A stretch of 64,000 bases of DNA from Candidatus Omnitrophota bacterium (GTDB lineage: Bacteria > Omnitrophota > Gorgyraeia > Zapsychrales > Zapsychraceae), in assembly GCA_015233115.1 (NCBI GenBank), contig JADFYJ010000013.1, positions 9,670 through 73,669 on the forward strand. The letters run 5' to 3'. Under the pieces are notes generated by a model. That model did no database searches and was not told the DNA's origin. It saw nothing but the letters and a program-made list of their open reading frames with translations. The position numbers and the translations under genes are program-made. Shown here piece by piece: positions 3,963 through 30,372 of the stretch. The stretch's first letter is position 1, and each line of letters opens with the position of its first letter.

Positions 3963-3964
3963 AT

Positions 3965-4738: not shown

Positions 4739-4749
4739 AAAAACTCCTC

Positions 4750-5574: not shown

Positions 5575-5588
5575 AAACGTTTTCCTTA

Positions 5589-8707: not shown

Positions 8708-9401
8708 GGGACACTTTTTCCTTTAATAAAAGTTCGACAATTTTAAAATCCACTAAGGAATCAATATCAATACTCCGGTCCTGAGGCATTTCATATAATT
8801 TGACTTTTCCGGAGATAATCGACTTTTGGTTCAGCAAAACCTCGGTTTTCCAAACATAAATCGACGCGTTCATGGCGTAAACAATAGGCGCGCTTTGCCG
8901 TCCTAAAATCACGGATCCGGCGTTTTTACTGACCTCGGCAAACCCTGCCTCATTAATTTCCACCATATTAAAATAAGGATTTTTATTGGAACGATAACCG
9001 GTTATAACGGAATCGCAATTTCCTTTTTGGATTAAAGCGATACACCCGGCAATGTCTTCCAGCAGTCTCAATGGAGAAGTAGGGTCTAGATCAACCACAT
9101 ATTCCGGATTTAATTTCATTTCCTTGATAGCATATTGCACGGCGTGTTGAAGCGCTGGAAGCTTCCCTGCCGCGTCAGTGGCTAATTCCGCAGGCCGTAA
9201 AAACGGGACTTTGGCGCCAAAGGATTTTGCGGTCTCCGCAATTTCAACTGAATCTGTGGTCACGATCACCTCATTAATCAACGGGCATTGCAAGGCTTGT
9301 TCAATTGTATAACCGATCAATGGTTTGCCCATTAATGGTCGGATATTTTTTTGCGGGACACCTTTAGATCCGCCTCTAGCCGCGATGGTCGCGAGAATCA
9401 T
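8694..9401 (-). CDS. Acylneuraminate cytidylyltransferase family (CMP-NulO synthetase, LegF/PtmB/NeuA-like)
   Basis: N-terminus ILATIAARGGSKGVPQKNIRPLMGKPLIGYTI is the NeuA/CMP-sialate synthetase signature. Confidence 0.8.
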   Translation of the reverse strand: MILATIAARGGSKGVPQKNIRPLMGKPLIGYTIEQALQCPLINEVIVTTDSVEIAETAKSFGAKVPFLRPAELATDAAGKLPALQHAVQYAIKEMKLNPEYVVDLDPTSPLRLLEDIAGCIALIQKGNCDSVITGYRSNKNPYFNMVEINEAGFAEVSKNAGSVILGRQSAPIVYAMNASIYVWKTEVLLNQKSIISGKVKLYEMPQDRSIDIDSLVDFKIVELLLKEKVSHGPI

Positions 9402-10336
9402 AAACTTTGTCCCTCTTTAAAATGAATGAGTTGACGGAATAATTGTGCCGCTTCTGAAATATTATTCATCATGGTTTTCCGCTCTGTCACATGCGACAAA
9501 AAATATTTTAACTGTTCCACAAACATATCGTCCCGCTCAAACGGAAACACGCGGGATTCTTTATGGCCGCGTTGAAAAAAATCAATCCGCGCCGCCATTA
9601 AATCCGCCACCAAAGACTGATCCGGTAAATCAATCCGTATTTTCCTTTCCGGCGAAAAACTCATAAAATCCAAATGCACATTCACTCGAGTTTTTTCTGT
9701 AACCACCACAGCATCACAACAGTCTTCCGCGTCAACCGTTACTTCTGATAGGCGCTTGAGAGAACCATGTATCTGCGCGATTTTTCCAAATAGATATTCA
9801 ATATAATCAAATTCATGCGACAATTCCAAAACCACGCCGCCGCCTTTATCTTTAAACGCTGAATAAGACTGCAAATGATCCTGATTGGGCCGCCAATCTG
9901 GCAGATACGAACTCGCGTTCACGCTGACTTGCAAAATTTTTTTATCTTTCAGATATTCTTTCAAAAATACGATTGCCGGATGAAACCGGAGCACATAGCC
10001 GACATACGATAGAACTTTTTTTGTTTGAATGGTTTGTTCCAACACATCCAAGCCATCCAGCGAAGAACCCAAAGGCTTTTCTAAAAAAACCGGAACACCC
10101 ACATTCACGCACTCTTGAGCGGTTGAAACATGCAAAAACGTTGGGTTCGCAATCAAAGCCGCCTCTGGCAAATTTTGCCGAAACTCATCCCAAGACTGGA
10201 ACATGGGACCAGACCAATCCGTCGGTTCCTGGCCTTTAAAACTGCGAAAAGCCCAGAGTTCATGCCCACCTAACTGACGCAATAAACGCGTATGACGCTG
10301 TCCGATTGAACCTAAACCAAACACACATATCTTCAT
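9398..10336 (-). CDS. Gfo/Idh/MocA-family oxidoreductase, PtmF-like
   Basis: N-terminal MKICVFGLGSIGQRH Rossmann and EKP motif typical of Gfo/Idh/MocA. Confidence 0.7.
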   Translation of the reverse strand: MKICVFGLGSIGQRHTRLLRQLGGHELWAFRSFKGQEPTDWSGPMFQSWDEFRQNLPEAALIANPTFLHVSTAQECVNVGVPVFLEKPLGSSLDGLDVLEQTIQTKKVLSYVGYVLRFHPAIVFLKEYLKDKKILQVSVNASSYLPDWRPNQDHLQSYSAFKDKGGGVVLELSHEFDYIEYLFGKIAQIHGSLKRLSEVTVDAEDCCDAVVVTEKTRVNVHLDFMSFSPERKIRIDLPDQSLVADLMAARIDFFQRGHKESRVFPFERDDMFVEQLKYFLSHVTERKTMMNNISEAAQLFRQLIHFKEGQSL

Positions 10337-11394
10337 AACTTATATTCCAGCCGATCAATGGTTTTATGGTATTCTTCCCATTGCCCCACATCCATATACG
10401 ACTTCTCCGAAACAGGATAGACACTAATGTTCTCTCCTTTTTTCAACAATACCGCGATCAAATCCGGCATATCAAACGGTTTGCCTTTAGGGATATATTT
10501 CAAAGCTTTCTTGGATAAAATGTAAACACCTGTATTGACGGTAAAATCAATCTCAGGTTTTTCTTCGATATTTTGAATTTTTCCGTGTTCCTTAAAATGG
10601 ATCACTCCGTAGGGAATTTTATGATGCTGAATAGTTCCGACTACCGTTAATAAATTCTGGTATTTACGGTGAAAACTCAACAAATCCGCGTAATCCGCGT
10701 TGACGATCACATCGCAGTTAGACACAATAAAATTCTCCGCAATATCCGCTGGCAGCATTTTCAAACTTCCGGCTGTTCCTAAAAATTCTTTTTCCCACAA
10801 ATAATGAATTTTATATTTATGGTCGATATAGTCAAAATACACTTTGATCATTTCGCCTTTATAATTCATGGTTAAGAAAAATTCCGGCGCCCCTATAGCC
10901 GTAAACCGGTCAATGATCACTTCAATAATGGGTTTATCATTGACGGGGATCAACGCTTTAGGCAGGATCCGCGTAAACGGCCCCAAACGCTGGCCTTTTC
11001 CTCCGGCCATAATCACGACGGGAACATCAATTTTATTACGGGGAAACGTTGATTCAGACACCAAATCCATCCAGAAAAACACATTCACAATTTTTTTAAA
11101 TTCATCCACCACCGGCAAAGCTTCAATTTTTTCCCGCACCATTAATTCTTTGATAATATCCTGATCCGTACCCTTTAAAACACTCCGGGGTTTAGCATTA
11201 TAAACTTTCTCAATGGTGCCGTGCAAATTCCCCTGTCCCAACAAATAACGGCGGATATCACCGTCAGTCAGAACACCGCATAAAGCGTCATGCTTATCAA
11301 CGACAAATAAAATTTTTTCGCCGCCCTCGTCCATACGCCTTAAAGCTTCACGAACCGTTATTTTTTTGGTAATGATCAGTTGCTGGATATCCAT
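10333..11394 (-). CDS. Tandem-CBS-domain sugar-phosphate nucleotidyltransferase, PtmE-like
   Basis: N-terminal CBS pair (..GVLTDGDIRRYLL..) followed by the NTP-transferase motif VVIMAGGKGQRLGPFTRILPKALIPV. Confidence 0.75.
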   Translation of the reverse strand: MDIQQLIITKKITVREALRRMDEGGEKILFVVDKHDALCGVLTDGDIRRYLLGQGNLHGTIEKVYNAKPRSVLKGTDQDIIKELMVREKIEALPVVDEFKKIVNVFFWMDLVSESTFPRNKIDVPVVIMAGGKGQRLGPFTRILPKALIPVNDKPIIEVIIDRFTAIGAPEFFLTMNYKGEMIKVYFDYIDHKYKIHYLWEKEFLGTAGSLKMLPADIAENFIVSNCDVIVNADYADLLSFHRKYQNLLTVVGTIQHHKIPYGVIHFKEHGKIQNIEEKPEIDFTVNTGVYILSKKALKYIPKGKPFDMPDLIAVLLKKGENISVYPVSEKSYMDVGQWEEYHKTIDRLEYKL

Positions 11395-12606
11395 TTAGCT
11401 CACCTGTTGACGTAATTGCCATTTTTGATTAACTTGTTTCCACAAATGCGGCGGACGGGCCCGGTCTATTATTTCATAAAATTTCTGCTCTGTGACCCCC
11501 ATGTATTCCAAATTATCCCGGAAATATTGTTTGGGGAATTCACCGTCAAAACGCTTGACCAGCCTGACCCCTTCATCGCGGGTAATATGCCCGTTACGGA
11601 CTTCCTGCGCCGCATCGTAAGTCGCGCGGCCAATGCCGAATTTAATAAAATAAGTATAAAAGTGAAACCAGTCAATTTTGTCGTCAAGACTATTGTATTT
11701 GCTATAACTGCCTTCCGTTCTTTGGTCATTGGGATAAAAATCCGTATTTTCCACTGAATAATAATAGGCCCATTGCGGATCCCATCGTAAATAATAACCT
11801 AAATAATGGACTTCCATTTTTAAACTTTCCGCGGCTTCCGGCGCAATCGGCATATAAGGCTCAATATCCGCACGGGTGAGGCCGTAATCTGTAATAAGCT
11901 TTTTCGCGTTCACACCGCCTAAATAAATTTCTTCCAATCGCTGTTCATAGGTAAAAAATTTCGTACTGCGCGTAGCTTTGTCATTATCTTTAATCGGATT
12001 GCCGTATTCCGCCTCGTTTTCTCCATAAACCACTAAAGGAATTTTATAAAGCGACGCAACTTTCGGCGCCACATTTTTCTGCCCGATGATAAACGGCTGA
12101 AACGGGTGGACTAAATTTTCAAATGCCAATTTCGTGATCAAACGGTGCACTTTCTGGTTCGGCGTATACGTGATATTATCAAAGCCCGCGTTAACCCACG
12201 CCTCAAAATTTCTCCGGCCCGGAATTGTATAAAGGTGCGGCGCCCAGGTTACTAATAAAGGATTCATGTTGTATTTGTAACGCAGGACATGCGCGGCCAC
12301 AATGCTGTCTTTTCCGCCGCTCCCGGGAACTATACAATCATAATTTCCGTCCGGACTGCGGAATCGCGCCAGCATTTTATGCAATTCTTCTTCGCGTTCC
12401 TGCCAATTGATTGATTTTTTATTTTCCGCGTAACGGCAAGCCTCACACACTCCTTCATTATCAAAACCAATGGTGCGTTTTTTACTGCTTTCCGTATTCT
12501 TAAACTCAACCACTGAAGAAGGCCGTTGATTAGAAATGACACATTTTTTACAATATTTAACATCAACAGGCAATCCATACATGCCGAATTCCGCTTTTTG
12601 TTCCAT
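11395..12606 (-). CDS. N-acetyl sugar amidotransferase (PP-loop ATPase; PseA/WbuX-like)
   Basis: PP-loop VPGSGGKDSIVAAH and N-terminal Cys cluster (CKKCVISNQRP..CEAC); lies directly upstream of HisH/HisF paralogs. Confidence 0.75.
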   Translation of the reverse strand: MEQKAEFGMYGLPVDVKYCKKCVISNQRPSSVVEFKNTESSKKRTIGFDNEGVCEACRYAENKKSINWQEREEELHKMLARFRSPDGNYDCIVPGSGGKDSIVAAHVLRYKYNMNPLLVTWAPHLYTIPGRRNFEAWVNAGFDNITYTPNQKVHRLITKLAFENLVHPFQPFIIGQKNVAPKVASLYKIPLVVYGENEAEYGNPIKDNDKATRSTKFFTYEQRLEEIYLGGVNAKKLITDYGLTRADIEPYMPIAPEAAESLKMEVHYLGYYLRWDPQWAYYYSVENTDFYPNDQRTEGSYSKYNSLDDKIDWFHFYTYFIKFGIGRATYDAAQEVRNGHITRDEGVRLVKRFDGEFPKQYFRDNLEYMGVTEQKFYEIIDRARPPHLWKQVNQKWQLRQQVS

Positions 12607-12616: not shown

Positions 12617-13222
12617 TTATATGCTTAAAAAATTATCAATAATTTTTAATCCATGCGTCCGGCTTTTTTCCGGGTGAAACTGCACGCCAAAAACCTGATC
12701 CCGCTCAACCACAGATACAAAACTATGATCTATGTAATTTGATAACCCTGCCACATCTTTATAATTAATAAACTCATAAGAATGCATAAAATAAAAAACA
12801 TCTTCAGCGGTCACTCCTTTTAAAATTTTAGATGGACGGATCACCTCCACATTCGCCCAGCCAATATGCGGGACCGGATGCTTGACCGGCATAAGCCTGA
12901 CTGCGCCTTCAAAATATTTCAATCCCGGGGTTTCGCCAAATTCATAACCAATCTCGGATAGAATCTGCATTCCCAAACAAATGCCTAACGTAGGTACTTT
13001 TAAAATTTTATCACGCAATTCCTGGTAAAACGGGGCAATGGATTCCATGGCGCCTTTGTATGTTCCTACGCCGGGAATAACAATTTTATCAACAGATTTC
13101 AAATCCTGACCGGATTTGACTACCACGATTTTGACCTCTTTTTTCGCCAGCTCAAACACTTTGCGGATATTAAAGATGTTTCCGGCTTGTCCGTAATCTA
13201 TCACTCCAATCACTTGGCTCAT
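12617..13222 (-). CDS. Glutamine amidotransferase, HisH paralog (WbuY-like)
   Basis: Class I GATase nucleophile motif GICLGMQ and FHPEKS. Confidence 0.8.
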   Translation of the reverse strand: MSQVIGVIDYGQAGNIFNIRKVFELAKKEVKIVVVKSGQDLKSVDKIVIPGVGTYKGAMESIAPFYQELRDKILKVPTLGICLGMQILSEIGYEFGETPGLKYFEGAVRLMPVKHPVPHIGWANVEVIRPSKILKGVTAEDVFYFMHSYEFINYKDVAGLSNYIDHSFVSVVERDQVFGVQFHPEKSRTHGLKIIDNFLSI

Positions 13223-13974
13223 AACGTCACCTCGATTTCCTGACTTAACAAATACTCTTTGATTTCGCGAATCGTGATGCGGTCATAGTGCAGCATGGAC
13301 GCGATACAAACCGCATTGACATTGCCATCTTTAATAACATCCCGGATGTGTTCCAATTGGCCGGCTCCGCCTGCGGCCACCACAGGCACTGACGCGATAG
13401 TAGAAATACCCGCCATGAGTTCCACATCAAAACCTTTTTGTCGTCCTTCAGTATCCACAGACGTTACTAATAATTCTCCAGCGCCTAAATCCTGGACTTC
13501 TTTCACCCAATCCATAACATCTTTCCCTGAAGGGATGCGGCCATAATCCGTGTAACATTCCCAACCGTCGCCTTTACGTTTGGCTTCAATAGAAACGGTC
13601 ACGCATTGGCTTCCAAAAATATGCGCGCAATCCCGGATCAACTGCGGGTTAGCAATAGCCGCGGTATTTATAACCACTTTATCTGCCCCGCAATGCAGTA
13701 ACCGAGCCACATCATCCGTCGTGCGAATTCCTCCGCCCACGCAAAAAGGCGCGACAATGCTTTTGGCCGTCTGCTCAATATACTCAAACAAAATCTCTCT
13801 TTGGTATAAACTGGCTACCGCGTCAATATAAAAAATTTCATCCGCGCCCTGCCAATAATACTTCTCAGCCAGAGCTTCAGGCTGACCCATTTTCCGCAGT
13901 CCTTCGAAATGAACTCCTTTGATCACATAGGGAGGTTTCACATCCAGGCGAGCGATCACACGTATTTTAGACAT
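13219..13974 (-). CDS. Imidazole glycerol phosphate synthase cyclase-subunit paralog, HisF-like (WbuZ-like)
   Basis: (beta/alpha)8 HisF signature regions RVIARLDVK..GADEIF..VGGGIR..AAGGAG. Confidence 0.8.
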   Translation of the reverse strand: MSKIRVIARLDVKPPYVIKGVHFEGLRKMGQPEALAEKYYWQGADEIFYIDAVASLYQREILFEYIEQTAKSIVAPFCVGGGIRTTDDVARLLHCGADKVVINTAAIANPQLIRDCAHIFGSQCVTVSIEAKRKGDGWECYTDYGRIPSGKDVMDWVKEVQDLGAGELLVTSVDTEGRQKGFDVELMAGISTIASVPVVAAGGAGQLEHIRDVIKDGNVNAVCIASMLHYDRITIREIKEYLLSQEIEVTL

Positions 13975-15148
13975 TCACTAACTCCTTGTTCAAATCATAG
14001 AATTCTTTTTTTAAAATTCCTTCTAAAGAAATTTTTTTTAATATTTTAACAATTTTAACAGCAGTCCCGCCTTTGCCATAAATATTCTTCACCAATTTTA
14101 ACTGACTCTGAAATGACGGAGAATACAAACGCTGTAAAGCCTTTTGGATCGATACGGTTTGCGGGCCGCAATCAATGATACTAGATGAACGCAGACGTCC
14201 AGCCTGACGGTCACCGATATTGACTGTCCCAATCTTGAAACTCGGCGCTTCCACAATTCCGCTCGAAGAATTTCCCACCACCCCATCCACATATTGCATC
14301 ATGGACAAATAATTCAACTGACCCAATGAAGTAAAAACTCTGGTATGACCTGGATGCCCCTCAACATACTTTTCAATGAGTTGGTTAATAACTTGACCAT
14401 CTGTATCCGCGTTAGCTTTGGTAAAAAACACCATGGTCTCTTTTAGTCCATTCAAAGCCTGCAAAAGGTTCTGGCATTGTTCAGGGGCCGTATTATTTTC
14501 CAGAGTCACCGGATGAAACGTCACCAGCAAATTATGTGGTGCAAATTTTAATTTCAAATTTCTCTCTAATTCATCCTTGGACAACAATTTCAATAATTTC
14601 AAATTATCTAAACCCAAAGCCCCCACATTAAAAACACGTTGAGGATTTTCTCCTAATTGAATAATTCTCCGCCGATAAACATCCGTGGCCGCGAAATGCA
14701 CGCTCGCCATCTTGGTGATGGAATGACGGATTGGTTCATCAATCAGTCCAAACGTTGATTCTCCGCCGGAAATATGCGCGATAGGGATCCGGCTGACCAT
14801 CGCGGCTGTAGCCGCTGCCAAAGCTTCAAATCTGTCGCCTAAAATAACCAACATATCCGGATTCAATTTTTTCAAAGCTTGCGCGTATCCTTCCACCCCT
14901 CTGGCCATTGAGCGGCAAATGCCCACCGGAGAATCATCTCCCAAATGGAGGTCAACTTTCGCGTCAATCGAAAATCCATCTTGAACAATCTGCTGATACG
15001 TCATTCCAAATTTCTTGGATAAATGCGTGCCTGAGACCAATAACTGTAAATCAAAAGCAGAATCTTTGCTTAATTCCTTAAGAAGAGGGAATAGCAAACC
15101 ATATTCCGCCCGCGTCGCGGTAAACACGCAGATTGTCCGCTTTCTCAT
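13967..15148 (-). CDS. Hydrolysing NDP-N-acetylglucosamine 2-epimerase (NeuC/LegG family)
   Basis: N-terminus ICVFTATRAEYGLL and overall NeuC-like length of 393 aa. Confidence 0.8.
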   Translation of the reverse strand: MRKRTICVFTATRAEYGLLFPLLKELSKDSAFDLQLLVSGTHLSKKFGMTYQQIVQDGFSIDAKVDLHLGDDSPVGICRSMARGVEGYAQALKKLNPDMLVILGDRFEALAAATAAMVSRIPIAHISGGESTFGLIDEPIRHSITKMASVHFAATDVYRRRIIQLGENPQRVFNVGALGLDNLKLLKLLSKDELERNLKLKFAPHNLLVTFHPVTLENNTAPEQCQNLLQALNGLKETMVFFTKANADTDGQVINQLIEKYVEGHPGHTRVFTSLGQLNYLSMMQYVDGVVGNSSSGIVEAPSFKIGTVNIGDRQAGRLRSSSIIDCGPQTVSIQKALQRLYSPSFQSQLKLVKNIYGKGGTAVKIVKILKKISLEGILKKEFYDLNKELVNV

Positions 15149-15864
15149 AATTTATCCTTTTTGCGGATTTCCAAAATAGTGGCGTCATAAATTAACCCCA
15201 TCCCATTGATAAATTTACGGCCTTCCGGAGTTATCATAGTCCAGCTGCGGATCGGATCTTCCTGCGGAACCAGATCAAAAGGCAAATGGAATTTATCGAT
15301 GTGAGAAATTTTCATATTCATCTCATCCAATACTTTTTTAACCGTCTCCAATGAATGATTATTATACCCATATTCAAAATTTTGATTATATTTATTGTTG
15401 CGGTATATGGTCCGCACATCCACATCAAACGTGTTAAATAATCCTAAAATAAAAATGACACCGTTATTTTCTAAATGATTCCGTAAATTTAAAAGCGGCT
15501 GATGGATATCATCAAAAAAAGATAAAACACCGGACATGGTGATCACATCAAATTTCTGGTTGAGCTGAAAATTCTCCGCTTTCCCGCATTGAAAGGCCAC
15601 CCCTTTTAATCCGGCGAATCGTTGCGCTGAATCAATCAATCCCTGACTATAATCAACTCCGGCTATATGTTTTATCTTTAATCCGGATAAATGTTTCAAA
15701 TAATATAAAAACTCCCCCCGGGCACAACCCACATCCAAGACTGAAAATTCATGGTTTGGGTATACCCCGCGGATTTTTTCACCCATGCATTTAAACATTT
15801 CTTTAGGTTTTGAATAATAATCTTCATTCAAATAGATGTATTGACTTTGATAATTGTCCGCCAT
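15145..15864 (-). CDS. Class I SAM-dependent methyltransferase
   Basis: Motif I VLDVGCARGEF. Confidence 0.6.
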   Translation of the reverse strand: MADNYQSQYIYLNEDYYSKPKEMFKCMGEKIRGVYPNHEFSVLDVGCARGEFLYYLKHLSGLKIKHIAGVDYSQGLIDSAQRFAGLKGVAFQCGKAENFQLNQKFDVITMSGVLSFFDDIHQPLLNLRNHLENNGVIFILGLFNTFDVDVRTIYRNNKYNQNFEYGYNNHSLETVKKVLDEMNMKISHIDKFHLPFDLVPQEDPIRSWTMITPEGRKFINGMGLIYDATILEIRKKDKL

Positions 15865-15866: not shown

Positions 15867-16541
15867 CTACCGCCAGATTTGTTTAATCATCATAAAAGAT
15901 TCTGCTGCCTTGCATCCTGCTGTCGCTCCTCTGAACGTGGCGAGCGCGCGAATATTTTCTTCACTGCGGGGAAATGGACTCTCTCCGATTTCTCCTGAAT
16001 ATATCTTCATAATTCTGACCTTATCCTCAATAAAACCATCCATATTGACAAAATAATTCGGCACAAAAGTCTTTCCTTCATGCGCCGGAGCAAACTCTGT
16101 TTCGCTGAGAGTTTCCATCATATACAGCGTCTTTATAAACGGATAGCGAAATATTTTAGTACAACTATAGATCTGGTCAAACGCCATGCGATGATCGCTA
16201 TGCACATCATACATAAAAGGCAAATAAATAATTTCCGGTTTAATCTGCTGAAAAACTTCTTGCACCTTTTCAATGAACAGATGCGGCGAAACAGTATCTA
16301 ACTTACGGGTAGGAAAATTCAGTTGAAAGGTTTGAGACATGCCAAACTCTGAGGCAACCTGTTCAATTTCTTTGTTCCGCGCCGCGATTTGCTCGGCCTT
16401 ATACCCTTCCTCTTGGCGCATAGCCGTCACAATCAGCCAATACACCTGATCGCCAGCTTGGCGGTGTTTTAATATGGTTCCTCCGCACCCTAAGGTTTCA
16501 TCATCCGGATGAACCGCGACGACTAAAACATTCTGACTCAT
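15867..16541 (-). CDS. PIG-L/LmbE-family de-N-acetylase
   Basis: VVAVHPDDETLGCGGT zinc-binding signature. Confidence 0.75.
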   Translation of the reverse strand: MSQNVLVVAVHPDDETLGCGGTILKHRQAGDQVYWLIVTAMRQEEGYKAEQIAARNKEIEQVASEFGMSQTFQLNFPTRKLDTVSPHLFIEKVQEVFQQIKPEIIYLPFMYDVHSDHRMAFDQIYSCTKIFRYPFIKTLYMMETLSETEFAPAHEGKTFVPNYFVNMDGFIEDKVRIMKIYSGEIGESPFPRSEENIRALATFRGATAGCKAAESFMMIKQIWR

Positions 16542-17419
16542 AAATAATCCCCTTTTTTTGGAAGGATTTTAAATTCATGCTCAACCAAACATATAGCGCC
16601 TTCACAACAACGCACGGTGATCTGCCCATTATCGACATTCAATATTTTCCCGAATTCATCATTTCCTGAACCCATTTCAATTTCCCGGACCCGCCAAATT
16701 TTAATTTCTTGCCCCTGATATAACAAATGCGCTCCCACGTAAGGCTTGGTTAAGGCTCGGACTAAATTATAAATCGCTCGGCTGTTCATGCAGAAATGAA
16801 TCTGTCCATCCCAGGCTGCGCGCTTACGCCAAACATTGGTTTGGTCCCGGTCTTGTTTTATTCGAGGACAGTTCCCCTGCTTTATAAGTGGAATAAACTG
16901 TTCCATCTGGCTGATCGCGGTTTGAGTGACCTTATCATACAAGGTCCTCGCGTCATCTTCATAACAAATCGGAATCTTAACTTGATTAATGATATCTCCG
17001 GTATCCGCGCCCTCATCCATAAAAAAGAACGTCGAGCCAGTTTCTTTCAAACCCAAGGCCAAAGCCCATATCAGGGGATGACGTCCCCGGTTTTGCGGAA
17101 GCAAAGCCGGATGAAATCCTATAACACCCTGCGGAGCTATTGACAAAAATGTTTTTTTTAACATCTGCGAATTCCCCAAACTCATCACGATATCTGGACT
17201 CAAGGATCTCATCCAATCCAACGCGGCCGCATCATTAAAATTCTCAGTTACCAAACAAGGGATATTCTGTTCCCGGCAAAATACCGTTAAATCACAAAAA
17301 TCCGCGTTAAAAGCAGACGATGGGCAAGTGACCACGCCCACCACCTCGGCTTTTAAAGCTACCAATTTGGCCAAAGCCTTTAAACTAAACTCCACATATC
17401 CGGCAAAAATAATCCTCAC
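16538..17419 (-). CDS. Formyltransferase (Fmt/ArnA-like sugar N-formyltransferase candidate)
   Basis: N-terminal Rossmann MRIIFAG, catalytic HPALLPQNRG motif, and a C-terminal Fmt-like domain. Confidence 0.75.
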   Translation of the reverse strand: MRIIFAGYVEFSLKALAKLVALKAEVVGVVTCPSSAFNADFCDLTVFCREQNIPCLVTENFNDAAALDWMRSLSPDIVMSLGNSQMLKKTFLSIAPQGVIGFHPALLPQNRGRHPLIWALALGLKETGSTFFFMDEGADTGDIINQVKIPICYEDDARTLYDKVTQTAISQMEQFIPLIKQGNCPRIKQDRDQTNVWRKRAAWDGQIHFCMNSRAIYNLVRALTKPYVGAHLLYQGQEIKIWRVREIEMGSGNDEFGKILNVDNGQITVRCCEGAICLVEHEFKILPKKGDYL

Positions 17420-18447
17420 GATTTGATCACCTCATCCGCTTTAAAATCCTGCTGTGCTTTCCGTCCCATAATACGATCCCATAACATCGGATTTAATCCT
17501 GTACCAGGGCGTTTAACAGTTAAATTCTCCGGAGAAAAAATTTCACCTTTACGGATATTCACCCGGGCCACAATACTTTTCCGGATAATTAATTTATTCT
17601 TTTCTTCCGTTAAAGAGGGCTTTTTAACTCCATTCCCCATCGCTTCTTCCACATGCCGGATCGCCTTCACTAATTGTTGTAATTCCTGCGGATTCAAAGA
17701 CGCTTGATGATCCGGGCCATCCATAGTTTTGTCCAGGGTAAAATGTTTTTCGATCACTTGTGCCCCTAAAGCCACAGCCGCTAAAGCCACTTCGATACCT
17801 TCCGTATGATCTGAATATCCAACTTTCACGCCTAAGGATTGACCGATCGTAACCATAGCGCGTAAATTCACATCTTTAAATACAGCCGGGTATTCCGTAC
17901 AACAATGCAGTACGGTAATATTTTTCTTCACTGTTCCGGCTTGGACTAAAATTTCAACAGCCGTTTTGATTTCTTTTAAAACTGCCATACCTGTCGATAT
18001 AATAATCTTTTTCTTTAGCTTTCCCATTTTCCGCAAATACGGCAGATTGGTAATTTCTCCTGACGGAATTTTAAGAATTTTTAATTTCAAACGATTTAAT
18101 AAATCAATACTGGGCAAATCAAAAGGCGATGAAATAAACTCAACTCCTTTGTTCTGTGCATAACGCAAAAGGTCCTCATGCTGTTGTTCATTCAATTGAA
18201 ACCTACGCACCATATCCAAAAAACTTTCTTGCTGATCCGTATGACGCAATTGGTAGGACGCTTTAGGAGTGGACTGACACATCACTTCTTCCGGCCTAAA
18301 GGTCTGAAATTTCACAGCATCAACACCGGCGATAGCCGCCTGATCAATCAGGTTTTTCGCCAATTCGATCTGACCATTATGATTAACACCGATCTCAGCG
18401 ATAATAAACACCCGTTTATCATTCAATTTATGCTTTAGCATTTTCAA
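17416..18447 (-). CDS. NeuB-family nonulosonic acid synthase (copy 1, LegI-like by context)
   Basis: FIIAEIGVNHNG, the TIM-barrel block and a C-terminal antifreeze-like domain. Confidence 0.8.
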   Translation of the reverse strand: MKMLKHKLNDKRVFIIAEIGVNHNGQIELAKNLIDQAAIAGVDAVKFQTFRPEEVMCQSTPKASYQLRHTDQQESFLDMVRRFQLNEQQHEDLLRYAQNKGVEFISSPFDLPSIDLLNRLKLKILKIPSGEITNLPYLRKMGKLKKKIIISTGMAVLKEIKTAVEILVQAGTVKKNITVLHCCTEYPAVFKDVNLRAMVTIGQSLGVKVGYSDHTEGIEVALAAVALGAQVIEKHFTLDKTMDGPDHQASLNPQELQQLVKAIRHVEEAMGNGVKKPSLTEEKNKLIIRKSIVARVNIRKGEIFSPENLTVKRPGTGLNPMLWDRIMGRKAQQDFKADEVIKS

Positions 18448-19318
18448 TCACTTTCAATTTGTCTAATTTAAACGGAATATTCTTGATATTCCATTCTTTC
18501 TTCAATTTCGCGGAAACGATTTTTTGCTGACAACGCAGTCCGTCTTTGCGTAAAACCAATTTCGTAGCCTTATTCCCGTACTGCTTAACCATGTAACCCG
18601 CTATTTCCCCCAAAGTATACTGTTCATCGCTTCCCAAATTAAAAATACCTGAAACCGGCTGTTTTAAAATTTTCTTCAACACGGCGACGACTTCATCCGT
18701 AAAGATAAAATTAATCACTCTGTGTCCGTTACCGAATACCGTAATCTGATTGCCGTCACGCAATTCTTTGAAAAAAACCGGCAAAATGCGGTCAGGCCGC
18801 ATGCCCTTGCCAATAATTTGCGCGAGCCTAAGTTGAGTCACAGTCATTTTGTCACTCAGCATACGTTCAAATAAAACTTCCGCGTTAAATTTTGCTAACC
18901 CATAAAACACGTCATTGTTCTCAACCATATCAACCGCACTCGACTCAGTATAAAAACCATCTTTATTCGGATAAACCGCGACACTGGAAAAATTAATAAA
19001 AAATTGAGGTTTGATCAATTCTGCCAGACGTGCCGTATTCACCGCGACTTGTAAATTATTTTTTAAAAGGTTACTATCTTTTTTTGCCATAGGATCGGCC
19101 ATAGCCGCCGCTAAATGAATGATCCCGTCAATTTTCCCCGCCTTATATTTCCGGCCAAATGCTTCGATTTGTTTATCATCCAGCAAATTCAAATACAAAA
19201 TTTCCGCGGAAACCAACGTTTTGTCATCTGTCAAACCCAAAATGTGATGATGTTCTTTAAGGCTGGCTTGAAGATGCTGTCCAATAAATCCAGTGGCTCC
19301 GGTTATAATTACATTCAT
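18428..19318 (-). CDS. NAD-dependent epimerase/dehydratase
   Basis: VIITGATGFIGQHL; the ATG at 19318 is preceded by AGGA. The 52-codon upstream extension in the track is encoded by the inverted-repeat element and is rejected. Confidence 0.7.
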   Translation of the reverse strand: MNVIITGATGFIGQHLQASLKEHHHILGLTDDKTLVSAEILYLNLLDDKQIEAFGRKYKAGKIDGIIHLAAAMADPMAKKDSNLLKNNLQVAVNTARLAELIKPQFFINFSSVAVYPNKDGFYTESSAVDMVENNDVFYGLAKFNAEVLFERMLSDKMTVTQLRLAQIIGKGMRPDRILPVFFKELRDGNQITVFGNGHRVINFIFTDEVVAVLKKILKQPVSGIFNLGSDEQYTLGEIAGYMVKQYGNKATKLVLRKDGLRCQQKIVSAKLKKEWNIKNIPFKLDKLKVIENAKA

Positions 19319-19352
19319 ATTTCTTATCCTAATATATTTTACATTTTTTGTA

Positions 19353-19467
19353 GTAGGGGCGATCTCCCGATCGCCCGTATCCATTCGCTTTTCAATTAAC
19401 AATATGCTTTTAAGAATCATTAAAAAAACGATAATTTTGTAACGGGCGATCAGGAGATCGCCCCTAC
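19353..19467. repeat. 26-bp GC-rich inverted repeats (one mismatch) flanking a 63-bp AT-rich spacer; each arm is itself a hairpin (GGGCGATC..GATCGCCC)
   Basis: Left arm 19353-19378 gtaggggcgatctcccgatcgcccgt; right arm 19442-19467 is its reverse complement with C/T at one position. Intergenic between two operon genes. Confidence 0.7.
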
Positions 19468-19475
19468 AACACATA

Positions 19476-20477
19476 CTAACTTAATTCAGAATTAGAGCGA
19501 TAGCAATCTAAAGGAACAAATAACTCATCAAAAAAACGCAATACAGCGCCAAGCTGCGGAACAGGCATCGGTCGTCTTTTTCCCTCTAACACACTCTCTA
19601 ATAATATCACAACTTCATTCACACCCAGCAAGGTTCTCATATAAGTCGTTCCGGAGAAACGCGGGTTAATTTCAAATATAAACGGCCCTTGTTCGGTCAA
19701 ACGCAGTTGATAATTCGCCGGACCAAATAAATTCAGGACTTTGGCTGCTTGAACAATATAGCGGTTTACGTCTTCGCATGTGTCATCACAAATCGCGCGG
19801 AAAGTGTTTCCATCTTTTAAATCCCTGCGCAAGCTAATGACACTTTTCACCTCGCCGTCCAATATCAATGACCCGCAGGTATATTCTTTTTCTATGGTGC
19901 CCATTTCTTTTTGGATCACCGGATTGGGGCATACCAAAAGGGCGTGATCTAACTCGGTTTCATTCTTCACGAAAAACACATTCCGAGACCTAAAACCTCT
20001 CCGCGGTTTGACAACGTAAGGAAAAGCATTTTGACTGATAAAAGGCTTAATGCTTTCCGGCAAACACGACGGAGCGTAATTCAGTCCCCGTTCCCTCAAA
20101 CATTCCGCAGTCAGCCATTTGTCCTGGCAAATACGAATGCTGGCTTCATCCCCTACAATAATTTTCGCTTTGGTTTCTTGCTCTAACCGTTGTTTATATC
20201 GCGAAAAAATATCCAGTTCGAAATCCAAACCAATCAAAACCACATCAATGTTTTCGTGAATCAAAATTTTCTTAACCGCGCTGATCCATTCTTCTTCCGT
20301 GACTTCCTTTTTAAGAATATCCGGCAAAAGATACTGACTATCCGCCCAATACAAACCCACGGCGTGAGAAAAATAATCTGCGGCTATAATCCGGCATTTC
20401 AAAGAACTTTTGCGGATTGATTTAATGAGCGCCTGTCCAATAACTGAGCCAGCGCCAGTCACTAACACATTACTCAT
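19476..20477 (-). CDS. ATP-grasp family ligase (N-terminal Rossmann-like plus ATP-grasp fold)
   Basis: LVTGAGSVIGQ N-terminus and an ATP-grasp core (..YVVKPRRGFRSRNVFFV..E.NPRFSG). The ATG at 20477 makes an ATGA overlap with the upstream stop. Confidence 0.6.
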   Translation of the reverse strand: MSNVLVTGAGSVIGQALIKSIRKSSLKCRIIAADYFSHAVGLYWADSQYLLPDILKKEVTEEEWISAVKKILIHENIDVVLIGLDFELDIFSRYKQRLEQETKAKIIVGDEASIRICQDKWLTAECLRERGLNYAPSCLPESIKPFISQNAFPYVVKPRRGFRSRNVFFVKNETELDHALLVCPNPVIQKEMGTIEKEYTCGSLILDGEVKSVISLRRDLKDGNTFRAICDDTCEDVNRYIVQAAKVLNLFGPANYQLRLTEQGPFIFEINPRFSGTTYMRTLLGVNEVVILLESVLEGKRRPMPVPQLGAVLRFFDELFVPLDCYRSNSELS

Positions 20478-21178
20478 AAGATGCCTTTCATCAGCTCGAA
20501 ACATCGGCCTAATTCTTCTACGCGGTGAACATCAGATCCGCACGAAACATAAGGATTATATTTTTTACATAACCGCGTCATAAGTGGAATGATGCTGGGC
20601 AGTAAATATTTTGAATTCCATTCTAACGCCATGGGTGTTTTCGCAATTTCCCTCACAATGCTCTCCATATATTCTTCCGGAAACTCGCCATGTGTGGCCA
20701 GTGACATCCCTGCCGGATGAGCCAGTACCTGAATCTTCTGACCTTTAATCATAGCAAAAGTTAAATCCCTTTCACGGCAAAACAAATCTTTCTTTTCCAT
20801 AATAACTATGGAAACAAATGAATCTTCCCTGGGAATACTATGCACACTGCCTAATACCAATTCCGCTTTATTCTTCACTTCATCACTCATATCCACATCA
20901 CCGTCTAAATTTAAAACTTTTGTTTCAACTCCGATTATAATTTCAATAGCCGGATATTTGGTCCGCAATTGAACAATCTCCTCGTAAAAATGGGGATAAT
21001 AATCACTATCCCGACGCACATGTTCCGTAAACGCGATCTGTTTTAAACCTTTTTTAACCGCCATTTGAATAATCGCTTCCGCCCCGCACGCACCATCCGT
21101 CCATGAGGTATGGATATGGCAGTCCACTTTAATTCGTTCCGCGTTTAATTCATTAAAGCGATAAAATTTCATGTCCAT
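20474..21178 (-). CDS. PHP-domain metal-dependent phosphoesterase
   Basis: DCHIHTSWTDG and later His/Asp ladder typical of PHP (histidinol-phosphatase/CpsB-like) enzymes. Confidence 0.65.
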   Translation of the reverse strand: MDMKFYRFNELNAERIKVDCHIHTSWTDGACGAEAIIQMAVKKGLKQIAFTEHVRRDSDYYPHFYEEIVQLRTKYPAIEIIIGVETKVLNLDGDVDMSDEVKNKAELVLGSVHSIPREDSFVSIVIMEKKDLFCRERDLTFAMIKGQKIQVLAHPAGMSLATHGEFPEEYMESIVREIAKTPMALEWNSKYLLPSIIPLMTRLCKKYNPYVSCGSDVHRVEELGRCFELMKGIL

Positions 21179-22296
21179 TATCTAACTCCAACAATATTTC
21201 CTTTAAAACCTCTCGATAGATAATCTTCGCGGATAACTGGATAAAACGTTTCCGGGACGATAAAGATTTGTTCAAAGTTGCCGGAAAACACATTTTCAGA
21301 TTTTAAGACTTTTTTACCGAAATAAATTTGCCCCTGCTTGCTGGTGTCATTATCAACCAGCATAAAATCAAAATTTATATCACACCATTCCAAAATATTC
21401 TTGAGCGTATTGCTCGCTCCGTGGACAGCGCCATGTTTTATTTTCAATAAAGCGCTGATACGTTCCAGCGTCAGGCTTAATTTGTTTTCATAATTGCTAT
21501 AATCTCTTTTGGACGCGACATTAACAGACTGCCCCTGAAACTCAGCCAAAGCGTGATATTCATCCTGATATTTCACTAAATTTTTCAAAACAAAACCATT
21601 CCGCTCAAAAAATAATTTTAAGGACGCATCCGTAAAATATTGAATATGCTGGTGCATAAACAGCGCCGGAGATCCCGTCTCTAAATAATAATCCGCGTTA
21701 TTCACGGAAATAAAGACTTGGCCTTGCGGCGCTAAATGACGACGAATAAAATCCATAAATCCTTCCAGGTCTTCCACATGATCCAACACATCAAACGCGT
21801 AAATAAAATCAAATTTCCGGGACAGATTCAAGTTCCGATCCGCAAAAGCTTTGACAAAATTTATGCCATCGGCAATGCCCGCTGTTTTCAAAGACGGTTC
21901 AATTCCGGTCACATCCTGAATTCCCTGCGACTTTAAGAACCGCAATATATAACCCTTATCACAGCCGATTTCTAAAGCAGACTGAAATGCCGTAATATCC
22001 ACCAGCCGGTTAAAATGCTTAAGGATTTTTTCGCCCCGTTCTTTGCCCCAATTCCCTTCTCCCATGGATACAGACAACTGCGCGGCACAAGACGTATAAA
22101 TATCCGCGAGCGCTGAACGCAATTCTGGAGTCACCTTCTCATAGACGTGGCCGCAGGCTAAACATTGAAATAATTGACACGGAAATTTACCAGCAGATGA
22201 GTTATGGTCATCCGGCGTATTCGTCGCAATCGAAGCCGCAGGCTGGTCTAATATCATTTGAGCTTCCCGGTTTCCACACGCATAACAACGCATCAA
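21178..22296 (-). CDS. SAM-dependent methyltransferase with N-terminal Zn-ribbon (NDP-sugar C-methyltransferase-like architecture)
   Basis: N-terminal CxxC..CxxC pairs, a class I MT core (LEIGCDKGYIL) and a C-terminal extra domain, as in TylC3/NovU-type C-methyltransferases. Confidence 0.55.
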   Translation of the reverse strand: MMRCYACGNREAQMILDQPAASIATNTPDDHNSSAGKFPCQLFQCLACGHVYEKVTPELRSALADIYTSCAAQLSVSMGEGNWGKERGEKILKHFNRLVDITAFQSALEIGCDKGYILRFLKSQGIQDVTGIEPSLKTAGIADGINFVKAFADRNLNLSRKFDFIYAFDVLDHVEDLEGFMDFIRRHLAPQGQVFISVNNADYYLETGSPALFMHQHIQYFTDASLKLFFERNGFVLKNLVKYQDEYHALAEFQGQSVNVASKRDYSNYENKLSLTLERISALLKIKHGAVHGASNTLKNILEWCDINFDFMLVDNDTSKQGQIYFGKKVLKSENVFSGNFEQIFIVPETFYPVIREDYLSRGFKGNIVGVR

Positions 22297-23399
22297 TTTC
22301 TCCGGTCTAAAATTTTAATCAATTGACGGGCAATGTTCACAACATCTTCTTCCTGATTCAAAGTTGAAGACGGCAAGCATAACCCTTTTTCAAATACCTG
22401 ATACGTGTTGGGAAAGCCCGACCGGCCGTTTTCTGAAAACATCGGAAATTCCGTGACTGGCATAAAGAATCTTCGGGTAGGAATCCCCTGTTCTTTTAAC
22501 TGATTTTGAACACTGGCCAAATCTTTATGATCAGGAATGAGCACACTATTGAGCCACCAGGTACTTTGCGCTTTTGGTACTTCTCTTTGAAAAATAATAT
22601 TTTTAAAACCACTCAGCTCATCCTGATAAATCTCATGATATCTTTTTTTCTTTTGTAAAAATTCCTTTAAACGGTCCATTTGCGCGAGGCCTAATGCCGC
22701 TTCCAGATTTGTCATCCGATAATTAAACCCCATTTCCGGGTGAAAATAACCGCGGCTTTCATCCCGGCCTTGGTTCACTAAAAACCGGATATGGCTGATG
22801 CTGTCTTTATCTTTTCCTAAAATCATCCCGCCACCGCCTGTGGTCATGATTTTATTACCATTAAAACTAAAACAACCCAAATCACCCAATGTCCCAGTCA
22901 TGCGGCCGTCAAAACTTGCCCCTAAACTTTCCGTCGCGTCTTCAATAACAAACAGCTTGTGACGTTGTGCTATTTCCAGAATCTCCTTCATGGCGCAGGG
23001 ATTACCAAATAAATGCACAGGAATGACAGCTTTAGTTTTAGGCGTAATGACTTGTTCCATTTTTTTAGGGTCAATATTCCACGTCATTAAATCAATATCT
23101 GCCAACACTGGCGTCGCCCCCACATAAAGAATTGGATTTATTGACGCCACAAACGTCAAGGCCGGAACAATCACTTCATCCCCAGGCCCAATCCCGAGTT
23201 GATAGAGCGCCATATGCAGTGAAGCGGTTCCGCTTTGCGTCGCGACCGCCCACGGAGAGCCCATCCATTCCGCGAAACGTTGTTCAAATTGCGGGATAAA
23301 CGGACCGACTGTTGAAACATAGCCAGAATCAATGGCTTCGCACAAATAGCGTTTTTCCAGGTCACCTAAATTGGGGGCATCTAAAAATATTTCAGACAT
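22293..23399 (-). CDS. DegT/DnrJ/EryC1-family PLP-dependent sugar aminotransferase (LegC/PseC-like)
   Basis: Fold-type I aminotransferase blocks and PLP lysine motif SFNGNK. Confidence 0.8.
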   Translation of the reverse strand: MSEIFLDAPNLGDLEKRYLCEAIDSGYVSTVGPFIPQFEQRFAEWMGSPWAVATQSGTASLHMALYQLGIGPGDEVIVPALTFVASINPILYVGATPVLADIDLMTWNIDPKKMEQVITPKTKAVIPVHLFGNPCAMKEILEIAQRHKLFVIEDATESLGASFDGRMTGTLGDLGCFSFNGNKIMTTGGGGMILGKDKDSISHIRFLVNQGRDESRGYFHPEMGFNYRMTNLEAALGLAQMDRLKEFLQKKKRYHEIYQDELSGFKNIIFQREVPKAQSTWWLNSVLIPDHKDLASVQNQLKEQGIPTRRFFMPVTEFPMFSENGRSGFPNTYQVFEKGLCLPSSTLNQEEDVVNIARQLIKILDRRN

Positions 23400-24390
23400 T
23401 GTAAATTCCTGATTTGTATCCCTGGATGTTTTTCGACTGACGAAACCATGCTATGGTTTCATTGAGACCGTCTTGTAAAGCGCAAGCAGGACTCCATCCG
23501 GTTATTTGTTTTAATTTAGCATGGCTGCCATATAAGCGTTCAACTTCGCTTAATTTAGGACGAAGCCGGTCTTGGTCTTCTTCAATCCGGGCTGATGATC
23601 CCATTAATGTAATAATATTCTGCGCCAAATCTCTAATCGAAATTTCCGATTGAGTGGCAATATTTATATCCTGGCCTATGGCCTGATCTGCTTTGGCGAT
23701 TTCTATGAAACCTTGAACAGTATCTTTCACATAAACAAAATCTCTGGTCGGATGAACTGCTCCTAATTTAATCTGTTTAACTCCCGAAAGCAATTGACAA
23801 ATGACCGTAGGTATAACCGCGCGCGCAGACTGTCGTGGCCCATAAGTATTAAAAGGGCGCACCATGGTCACTGGCAAATCAAAGCTGCGGAAAAATGACT
23901 CAGCTAAACAATCCGCGGCAATCTTGGTCGCGGAATAAGGCGACTGCGGCTGACGTTTATGATTTTCATCAATCGGAACATATTGCGCGGTACCGTACAC
24001 TTCCGACGTTGAAGTCACTAAAACCCGCTTCACTTTAAGATCTTTAGCCGTCTGGAGAATGTTTAACGTGCCTTTAACATTGGTATCAATATAACTATCC
24101 GGAGAATGATAACTAAAAGGAATACCGATCAAGGCAGCCAAATGAAACACGATATCCACGCCTTGCATGGCTTGACGCACGCCATTCGGGTCGCGGATAT
24201 CGCCCGCGAAAATCTCAATCTCCTTGAGCTGTTCCGGAGCTAAAGTATCGAGCCATCCCCAGCTATTAAAGGAATTATAATAAACAAACGCCCGGACCTG
24301 ACAGCCTTGTTTTAAAAGCGCTTCAGTCAAATGAGACCCAATAAAGCCATCCGCTCCGGTCACTAAAACTTTTTTATGCGCAAGATCCAT
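23392..24390 (-). CDS. NAD-dependent NDP-sugar 4,6-dehydratase (LegB-like extended SDR)
   Basis: VLVTGADGFIGSHL, YSATK catalytic motif, directly upstream of the aminotransferase. Confidence 0.75.
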   Translation of the reverse strand: MDLAHKKVLVTGADGFIGSHLTEALLKQGCQVRAFVYYNSFNSWGWLDTLAPEQLKEIEIFAGDIRDPNGVRQAMQGVDIVFHLAALIGIPFSYHSPDSYIDTNVKGTLNILQTAKDLKVKRVLVTSTSEVYGTAQYVPIDENHKRQPQSPYSATKIAADCLAESFFRSFDLPVTMVRPFNTYGPRQSARAVIPTVICQLLSGVKQIKLGAVHPTRDFVYVKDTVQGFIEIAKADQAIGQDINIATQSEISIRDLAQNIITLMGSSARIEEDQDRLRPKLSEVERLYGSHAKLKQITGWSPACALQDGLNETIAWFRQSKNIQGYKSGIYNV

Positions 24391-26250: not shown

Positions 26251-26255
26251 AATAT

Positions 26256-28803: not shown

Positions 28804-28826
28804 TGCTCAATCCTAATGTTACTCGA

Positions 28827-30311: not shown

Positions 30312-30372
30312 TTTTCATCCTTTTTACTGGTCGGAATTCCACCGAGAGTGATCACTTCATACCTGACCCCTT

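Follow-up and report, generated by a model that had tools for sequence, protein, structure and literature searches.

Which sugar, and which nitrogen on it, is served by a de-N-acetylase and a formyltransferase whose genes overlap? The question is raised by a stretch of 64,000 nucleotides from a Candidatus Omnitrophica metagenome-assembled genome (MAG; GenBank assembly GCA_015233115.1, contig JADFYJ010000013.1, positions 9,670 to 73,669), referred to in the following as the window. On its minus strand, an ArnA-like formyltransferase with two subdomains, termed FT1, is encoded at 16538-17419 (293 amino acids, GTG start; PF00551 and PF02911), and a zinc-dependent de-N-acetylase of the PIG-L/LmbE family at 15867-16541 (224 amino acids, ATG start; PF02585). 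Flagellins, S-layers, capsules, and O-antigens carry legionaminic and pseudaminic acids as caps, and the N-substituents of these sugars set charge as well as recognition by antibodies and phages. The initial annotation had read the pair as removing an N-acetyl group and replacing it by formyl. This core reading, de-N-acetylation followed by N-formylation, is the one best supported by the comparative evidence described below, and it is consistent with the formylated cytidine monophosphate (CMP)-nonulosonates of Candidatus Kuenenia. More specifically, we infer from the logic of gene slots that both enzymes act on the same nitrogen, and we assign a probability of roughly 0.6 to an exchange of acetyl for formyl on N5 of a legionaminic-type sugar.

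Organization of the gene pair

Both open reading frames (ORFs) and the 4-nucleotide overlap originally described were recovered, together with the motifs HPDDE and HPALLPQNRG, which occur as VAVHPDDETLG in PIG-L and FHPALLPQNRG in FT1. The junction reads TTATGAGT, the stop codon TGA of FT1 and the start codon ATG of PIG-L sharing the nucleotides ATGA. The order first given, PIG-L followed by the formyltransferase, holds for plus-strand coordinates; in the direction of transcription, FT1 comes first and PIG-L second. At its 5′ end, the FT1 start is in turn overlapped by the stop of the NeuB/LegI gene, again by 4 nucleotides (GTGA), and the genes for NeuB, FT1, PIG-L, a methyltransferase, and NeuC are tightly packed, with overlaps or 2-nucleotide gaps. 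Judged by the encoded proteins, among which LegB, LegC, LegG, LegI, a CMP-transferase, and a PtmE-like protein occur together, the pair is embedded in an operon for legionaminic acid synthesis of the guanosine diphosphate (GDP) type.

Sequence and structural relationships of FT1 and PIG-L

Membership in curated families was judged by NCBIfam equivalog cut-offs and domain content by Pfam gathering thresholds. FT1 consists of a Formyl_trans_N domain (PF00551; 83.5 bits, cut-off 26.1, E = 2.1e-23) and a Formyl_trans_C domain (PF02911; 64.8 bits, cut-off 21.1, E = 8.8e-18). Its two top curated-family scores, both below the respective cut-off, were obtained with the generic family "formyltransferase" (NF005414; 181 bits) and with ArnA (NF005998; 175.2 bits, cut-off 777); the latter match is limited to the N-terminal 277 profile positions, and FT1 ends at residue 293, without the fused C-terminal decarboxylase domain of ArnA. 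Among solved structures, the best sequence match was the ArnA formyltransferase domain (E = 3.6e-33, residues 5-279, 27% identity), followed by Fmt (3.9e-28), WbkC (1e-18), and 10-formyltetrahydrofolate (10-formyl-THF) dehydrogenase (1.8e-17); PseJ (2e-12, residues 75-191), WlaRD (6e-7), and VioF (5e-5) matched more weakly. The AlphaFold model of FT1 has a predicted local distance difference test (pLDDT) score of 93.4 and a predicted template modeling (pTM) score of 0.89, and it superimposes with template modeling (TM) scores of 0.87-0.91 on ArnA, 0.85-0.88 on Fmt, and 0.81-0.84 on the hydrolase domain of 10-formyl-THF dehydrogenase.

FT1 was aligned with ArnA, E. coli Fmt (checked against PDB 1fmt), and human 10-formyl-THF dehydrogenase (checked against 2bw0). 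In this comparison of catalytic and folate-binding residues, which the initial annotation had proposed for the sugar formyltransferases, the catalytic His and Asp are kept as His103 and Asp139, as is the LLPxxRG loop, whereas the textbook catalytic Asn (N102 in ArnA, N108 in Fmt) is Gly101 in FT1. By the curated cut-offs, FT1 is a member of neither ArnA nor Fmt, and its sequence departs from the canonical Asn-His-Asp triad. The Asn of the N-x-H motif is likewise absent from 10-formyl-THF dehydrogenase, which reads IIYHPSLLPRHRG and hence offers a precedent for a formyl-THF enzyme lacking that residue. Its hydrolase domain (PDB 2bw0, 1s3i) has I-Y-H-P-S-LLP where the FT1 family has G-[FY]-H-P-A-LLP, and it uses N10-formyl-THF; in contrast to the sugar amine proposed for FT1, the acceptor in this eukaryotic multidomain protein is a phosphopantetheine arm, or the formyl group is simply hydrolyzed.

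The description of FT1 as "Fmt-type" holds only for its domain architecture, which ArnA shares. Could FT1 nevertheless be the methionyl-tRNA formyltransferase of the organism, or a paralogue acting on tRNA, with PIG-L next to it by accident? The Formyl_trans_C OB-fold domain, the closeness of Fmt structures in fold, and the label "methionyl-tRNA formyltransferase" given to FT1 relatives by several sources speak for it. Opposed to this are a score of 133.5 bits on the Fmt family TIGR00460 (cut-off 201.5), the closer relationship to ArnA, and the absence from the FT1 family of both the loop-1 insertion RGKK and the Lys-rich C-terminal segment PAGKKAMSA of E. coli Fmt. Furthermore, a scan of one genome for each of 185,579 species found just 413 stretches encoding an FT1 relative, so FT1 cannot be a housekeeping fmt product. 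Of these 413 stretches, the best 80 were available for comparison; among the related loci, 79 have enough downstream sequence and 49 have full flanks, and in the latter, NeuB lies within 10 kb in 45 loci and PIG-L is the next gene in every one. An identity with housekeeping Fmt was dropped on account of the score, the missing insertions, and the sparse distribution. We attach hardly any probability to it and regard it as effectively refuted; the outcome that the initial annotation had named as refuting its reading, a grouping with genuine methionyl-tRNA formyltransferases, was not observed.

The PIG-L protein matches PF02585 with 86.8 bits (cut-off 28.2, E = 2.3e-24), and its nearest solved relatives, at 53-54 bits, are diacetylchitobiose deacetylase, TT1542, and BshB (PDB 8bgn, 1uan, 6p2t). 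It scores below every NCBIfam equivalog cut-off and far below those of BshB1, BshB2, and MshB, so it is none of these three. With MshB, BshB, and diacetylchitobiose deacetylase it has the fold family and the HPDD...HxDH motif in common; the residues H11, D13, D14, H114, D116, and H117 are invariant in 75/75 PIG-L partner sequences and, following the assignment for MshB, we take them to be the zinc ligands and the catalytic base. All characterized relatives matched remove the acetyl from the 2-acetamido group of an N-acetylglucosamine (GlcNAc) unit. The substrate of the PIG-L partner, in contrast to those of MshB and BshB, is presumably a GDP- or CMP-linked sugar.

Occurrence and gene context of the FT1-PIG-L cassette

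Database relatives of FT1 have 293-308 amino acids, are 54-59% identical to it, and come from Omnitrophota, Planctomycetota, Campylobacter concisus, and many metagenomes; across phyla, family members are 50-58% identical. The best 80 stretches span Campylobacterota, Bacteroidota, Pelagibacteraceae, SAR116, Leptospira, Brevibacillus, Desulfobacterota, Aquificales, and others, and carriers of the FT1-PIG-L cassette include C. concisus from the human mouth and gut, many Flavobacteriia, and Omnitrophota. Formyl groups on such sugars had initially been called rare decorations, which is true of the literature and does not hold for the genomic distribution. The motif G-[VI]-[VI]-G-[FY]-H-P-x-x-LP-x-N-R-G, exact or slightly varied, occurs in 120/120 of the best database matches, as does the Gly-[FY]-His motif. 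In an alignment of the window protein with 19 relatives, G101, H103, N110, R111, G112, R113, H114, P115, and D139 are invariant.

We define the cassette by the motif G-[VI]-[VI]-G-[FY]-H-P-x-x-LP-x-N-R-G-R-H-P, a PIG-L gene on the same strand directly downstream, and NeuB and NeuC neighbors. The window has the motif as GVIGFHPALLPQNRGRHP, PIG-L with its 4-nucleotide overlap, LegI directly upstream, and LegG beyond PIG-L and the methyltransferase. A PIG-L homologue on the same strand directly 3′ of FT1 is present in 77 of the 79 loci, including all 49 with full flanks, and starts about 878-890 nucleotides past the FT1 start. In the two exceptions, PIG-L is located elsewhere in the same locus; FT1 without PIG-L was found in none. 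The overlap measures exactly 4 nucleotides (ATGA) in 65 loci from more than 10 phyla. Adjacency of this frequency and exactness is far beyond chance, and the consistent presence of PIG-L would be expected if FT1 needed the amine that PIG-L liberates; it would not be expected of two independent steps.

The neighbors found in the 49 full-flank loci are those of a nonulosonate pathway: NeuB in 45, NeuC in 46, LegC/DegT in 46, PtmE in 44, and LegF in 42. The usual cassette encodes a dehydratase, an aminotransferase, a hexapeptide acetyltransferase, NeuB, NeuC, FT1, PIG-L, PtmE, and a CMP-transferase. The order NeuC-FT1-PIG-L is seen in 36 of the 49 loci, and the order of the window, NeuB-FT1-PIG-L-(x)-NeuC, in 8, mainly from Omnitrophota and Planctomycetota; in most loci the PtmE gene directly follows PIG-L. 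In C. concisus (L001:9303-10004 and L009; L numbers designate the loci compared) and in a Helicobacteraceae MAG (L070), a glycosyltransferase family 2 (GT2) gene lies immediately upstream of FT1 and no NeuC is nearby, an arrangement that recalls ArnC-ArnA. The 239-residue methyltransferase encoded after PIG-L in the window is an occasional third member of the cassette, a copy with 51% identity occupying the same position in an Omnitrophota locus (L008).

Assignment of the pair to a nitrogen of the sugar

No LegH/PglD-type hexapeptide acetyltransferase was found in the 64-kb window by tblastn with two PglD/LegH-like queries (E ≤ 1e-3), and the first idea was that FT1 substitutes for LegH. This was rejected as a general rule, since 39 of the 49 full-flank loci encode a LegH/PglD-type acetyltransferase in addition to the pair and since, elsewhere, the slot is filled by a canonical formyltransferase; FT1 does not generally stand in for LegH. 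The slot in question is the gap between the aminotransferase and NeuB genes. When LegH is missing from it, other genes take its place, and FT1 and PIG-L are still present.

Three kinds of replacement were observed. The first is a second formyltransferase, FT2, in L010, L014, L063, and L084, located precisely at the LegH position in L010, L014, and L063. FT2 is 29-31% identical to FT1, has the canonical motif I-N-C-H-A-G-x-LP-F-Y-R-G, and is encoded at L010:6966-7853, L063:6957-7853, and L084:12527-13600, with further paralogues in L014, L031, and L071; in the LegH slot it would predict a di-N-formyl legionaminic acid. Strains of C. concisus vary in this respect, some having LegH in the slot and others FT2. 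The second is a carbamoyltransferase of the NodU/CmcH type (L030:6118-7824 and L065:6573-8999), in L065 as an 808-residue fusion with an N-terminal formyltransferase-like domain (NFHPGPP), which points to N-carbamoyl or similar groups at N7 of legionaminic acid. The carbamoyltransferase encoded in the window (35127-36926), considered as an enzyme of this slot, is uninformative, with just 28-30% identity to those of L030 and L065 and a distance of 12 kb. The third is a module of a phosphoesterase (PHP or metallophosphatase), an ATP-grasp protein, and a short-chain dehydrogenase/reductase (SDR), with or without a methyltransferase, which recurs in the slot in the window (18428-22296), in the Omnitrophota locus L085 (7462-10865), and in L086 (8369-10832) from Scalindua, an anammox genus. 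In L086, phosphoesterase, ATP-grasp, and SDR genes precede NeuB and NeuC, and LegH is absent. The module looks like an uncharacterized route to a non-acetyl N7 substituent. Since the N7 substituent varies with the content of the slot and the pair stays constant, the simplest target for the pair is the other nitrogen, i.e., the GlcNAc-derived acetamido group that becomes N5. The sibling Omnitrophica locus L085 matches the window in gene set, down to the ATP-grasp module, and closely follows its gene order, with PtmE at another place; relative to the window it lacks exactly FT1, PIG-L, and the 239-residue methyltransferase; the FT1-PIG-L pair thus behaves as an insertable accessory unit.

The closest system described so far, the legionaminic acid-type cluster of Candidatus Kuenenia stuttgartiensis, contains legB, legF, legC, a deacetylase gene, a formyltransferase gene, neuB, legF, and legG, and mass spectrometry of the CMP-nonulosonates of this organism revealed formyl, a free amine, and a methyl group (+14 Da), the formyl group and the free amine being left without assigned positions there (SugarBase preprint, bioRxiv 10.64898/2026.04.20.719630). 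Compared by description, that cluster and the window both have a deacetylase and a formyltransferase and no LegH, the window containing FT1, PIG-L, and a methyltransferase; the window differs in its extra ATP-grasp module and a trio of amidotransferase genes.

A CMP-sugar with one formyl group and one free amine, from a cluster described without legH, would also be obtained if the two enzymes served different nitrogens. FT1 would then formylate the C4 amine installed by LegC, as an analogue of LegH or PseJ that yields an N7-formyl group, and PIG-L would separately free N5, which could stay a free amine or be acylated again, the product being Leg5N7Fo or Leg5X7Fo. LegH is missing from the window and from the vicinity of the pair in L059; in ArnA, the nearest characterized relative, the amine that receives the formyl group is at C4 of a nucleotide sugar; with PseJ, the pseudaminic acid pathway offers a case in which a formyltransferase takes over from the N7 acetyltransferase; and the ATP-grasp ligase of the window could in that case load the freed N5. 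However, in the 39 loci with a LegH-type enzyme, FT1 would compete with it for the same amine, and in at least four loci, where FT2 fills the LegH slot beside FT1 and PIG-L, one of the two formyltransferases would be redundant. In addition, the ATP-grasp module occupies the LegH slot of L085, a locus that lacks FT1 and PIG-L, and independent steps leave the constant company of the two genes and their 4-nucleotide overlap unexplained. We consider an action on different nitrogens possible, if unlikely.

The formyl group might also be transient. In the aminoarabinose (Arn) pathway of lipid A, ArnA adds a formyl group that ArnD subsequently takes off. If FT1 and PIG-L worked in this way, formyl, added early, would protect the amine or pull an equilibrium, PIG-L would be a deformylase acting later, and the product would be a zwitterionic nonulosonate with a free amine. 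The relationship of FT1 to ArnA, the free-amine nonulosonates reported for Kuenenia, and the ArnC-like GT2 gene 5′ of FT1 in C. concisus and L070 would fit, yet formyl is still present on the CMP-activated sugar in Kuenenia, and such a GT2 neighbor occurs in just a few of 84 loci. Moreover, ArnD belongs to the polysaccharide deacetylase family, whereas the matched PIG-L relatives with known function all remove acetyl, and with LegH encoded in most loci the C4 amine needs no protecting group. A transient formyl group is very improbable on this evidence. An extended version, in which the pair is a "formyl on, formyl off" device that outputs zwitterionic legionaminic acid and the Gly-for-Asn exchange reflects a specialized, possibly channeled two-enzyme complex, is judged improbable.

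Proposed pathway and points of conflict

For the preferred acetyl-to-formyl exchange, the following pathway is proposed. FT1 and PIG-L would form a translationally coupled two-enzyme tailoring cassette within the GDP-dependent legionaminic acid pathway. PIG-L, as a zinc amidase of the MshB/BshB type, would strip the N-acetyl group that GlcNAc contributes at hexosamine C2, the position that becomes N5 of the nonulosonate, and FT1 would move a formyl group from N10-formyl-THF to the freed amine, leading to a CMP-activated 5-formamido legionaminic acid. N7 would derive from the C4 amine introduced by LegC and, in the window, would be dressed by the ATP-grasp/PHP/SDR/methyltransferase module instead of a local LegH. 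The predicted sugar is CMP-Leg5Fo7X, X being an acyl group presumably supplied by the ATP-grasp module, and the adjacent 239-residue methyltransferase possibly methylates it. The domain identities and folds, the intact PIG-L motifs, the coupling of the genes, and the cassette context are direct observations; we infer which nitrogen is modified, where the formyl comes from, and at what stage the pair acts. That stage may be GDP-GlcNAc/GDP-glucosamine (GDP-GlcN), with PIG-L returning acetylated material to the amine, and the position of PtmE right after PIG-L in most loci hints at it, gene order alone not being decisive; a later intermediate, linked to a nucleoside diphosphate or to CMP, is equally possible.

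Several points weigh against this reading. The functions proposed for the FT1 and PIG-L families have sequence, the structural model, and gene context as their whole basis. The canonical Asn is Gly in the window FT1 and in 19/19 aligned relatives, and activity with this exchange is assumed by analogy with 10-formyl-THF dehydrogenase. PtmE is stated to make GDP-GlcN (in PMC5378307, which cites Schoenhofen 2009), and with a product that is already a free amine, a deacetylase is not strictly needed for formylation of N5. The Kuenenia sugar, with its one formyl and one free amine, would fit an action on different nitrogens equally well. LegH could be encoded outside the window, elsewhere in the genome. 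Finally, the WbuX/HisH/HisF trio of the operon needs an N-acetyl group, and without LegH in the window the only acetyl available on legionaminic acid is the one that PIG-L would remove, which implies either mixed products or an incomplete assignment. Mixed products as in Campylobacter jejuni, or an action of the trio on the second nonulosonate of the glycan island, are possible solutions of this conflict.

Comparison with known systems

The cassette would work like a sugar-nucleotide N-formyltransferase of the ArnA type coupled to a deacetylase of the MshB/BshB type. The ArnA formyltransferase domain of E. coli (PDB 2bln, 5j63, 1yrw) resembles FT1 in its two-subdomain fold and in having the His and Asp of the triad and the folate loop LLPxxRG; its substrate amine, as proposed for that of FT1, is part of a nucleotide-linked sugar. 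The two differ in that ArnA has N102, whereas Gly101 takes this position in the FT1 family and Asn110 of LPxNRG is invariant, and in their partners: ArnA works with ArnB, ArnC, and ArnD in the context of lipid A, whereas FT1 has a PIG-L partner, a nonulosonate context, and no fused decarboxylase.

PseJ of Anoxybacillus (PDB 6ci2/6ci4) is a formyltransferase from a pseudaminic acid cluster that is credited with the formation of Pse5Ac7Fo. This short protein of one domain, assumed to act in place of the N7 acetyltransferase PseH, matches FT1 weakly and partially; its functional counterpart among the loci compared here is FT2 in the LegH slot, not FT1. 5-N-formyl-legionaminic acid has been reported from Halorubrum sp. 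PV6, where the gene for a putative formyltransferase, HrrPV6_1050, adjoins legG in the legionaminic acid operon (PMC6137143). Compared by description, the end product is the one predicted here, with formyl on N5 of legionaminic acid, but the organism is an archaeon, and a deacetylase is not mentioned for it in that paper.

In the searchable literature, N-formyl legionaminic acid has been structurally assigned only in a haloarchaeon and its virus, and the SugarBase preprint was the only source found that ties a deacetylase and a formyltransferase to a nonulosonate; nothing was found there on the FT1-PIG-L family, the coupling of its genes, or the change in its active site. The cassette belongs to a recently recognized kind of system rather than to a new one, and within it is widespread, tightly coupled, and equipped with a non-canonical active site. 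Should the assignment hold, 5-N-formyl legionaminic acids would be far more common than the literature implies, and the FT1 family would be a natural case of a formyl-THF enzyme that works without the textbook catalytic Asn; for this MAG, a nonulosonate with several modifications and no earlier description is predicted. Carriers in culture, among them C. concisus, Salidesulfovibrio brasiliensis JCM 12178, Flavobacterium suaedae, and Brevibacillus gelatini DSM 100115, are available for a check of the predicted 5-formamido sugar.

Other genes of the legionaminic acid operon

The operon genes are described in the order of transcription, all on the minus strand. LegB, an NAD-dependent 4,6-dehydratase (23392-24390; TIGR04180, 504.2 bits, cut-off 475), is followed by an aminotransferase of the LegC family (22293-23399), which with 411.5 bits on TIGR04181 remains just under the cut-off of 420. 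The module in the LegH slot comprises a methyltransferase (21178-22296), a PHP phosphoesterase (20474-21178), an ATP-grasp ligase (19476-20504; NF009402, 299 bits, cut-off 218), and an SDR (18428-19474). The SDR probably starts further downstream than listed: its Rossmann motif MNVIITGATGFIG is first reached at residue 53 and the Pfam matches at residues 53-55, and a later start would leave about 155 non-coding nucleotides after the ATP-grasp gene. The NeuB-type nonulosonate synthase LegI (17416-18447; TIGR03569, 483.9 bits, cut-off 399.65) precedes the FT1-PIG-L pair.

Directly after PIG-L comes the 239-residue class I S-adenosylmethionine (SAM) methyltransferase (15145-15864), and after this LegG, a hydrolyzing nucleoside diphosphate-sugar 2-epimerase of the NeuC type (13967-15148; TIGR03568, 473.7 bits, cut-off 235.9). 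The acetamidino-forming trio consists of a HisF/WbuZ-like protein (13219-13974), HisH (12617-13222), and the N-acetyl-sugar amidotransferase WbuX (11395-12606). The remaining genes, for precursor supply and CMP activation, encode a PtmE-like CBS-nucleotidyltransferase (10333-11394; by similarity only), a PtmF-like oxidoreductase (9398-10336), a LegF-like CMP-transferase (8694-9401; by similarity only), and a PtmA-like SDR (7919-8707); a Wzx-like flippase gene closes the order. For the two ORFs directly 5′ of LegB (24400-26828; 616 and 190 amino acids), no Pfam match was obtained, and for the larger one no NCBIfam match either.

Further genes of the glycan island

The operon is part of a glycan island of about 46 kb with all genes on one strand (1246-47590); no classical glycosyltransferase family was detected among its ORFs of at least 150 amino acids. 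A second nonulosonate module is located at 38047-47590. It encodes a PseC-like aminotransferase (44779-45957), a 540-residue protein with a PseG-like C-terminal half (43173-44795), a KdsB-like cytidylyltransferase (42494-43198), and a second NeuB (41427-42488), which is 34% identical to the first and scores below both the NeuB and the PseI cut-offs. Also encoded there are a DUF4910/M28-like protein, a truncated-looking DegT, a FemAB-like GNAT protein, an Fe-alcohol dehydrogenase, and a MarR-like protein; a PseB-type dehydratase was not seen in this module.

A tailoring block extends from 27361 to 38008, with genes for an MBOAT acyltransferase, a B12-binding radical SAM protein, an aldo-keto reductase, two radical SAM/SPASM proteins, a methyltransferase, the carbamoyltransferase mentioned above, and a LIC12162-family transferase (30373-32124; TIGR04331, 398 bits). 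Genes of the radical SAM/SPASM and B12-radical SAM types also border L086 from Scalindua and come after NeuC in L059. A third CMP-activation module (2407-6353) includes a cytidylyltransferase of the KdsB subfamily (3965-4738), which scores above two subfamily cut-offs, as well as an HpcH/HpaI-type aldolase, an FkbM methyltransferase, a D-2-hydroxyacid dehydrogenase, and an HAD phosphatase, and may provide a further building block of the ulosonic or glyceric acid type. At or near the edge of the island, a gene for methylenetetrahydrofolate reductase (MTHFR) is found in the window (50839-51717, plus strand), in the C. concisus loci (L001:101-985), and in L085 (1-79), in the window with MetH close by (54169-57774); this position may be a coincidence, may mark an insertion hot spot, or may be tied to the provision of one-carbon units to the formyl- and methyltransferases.

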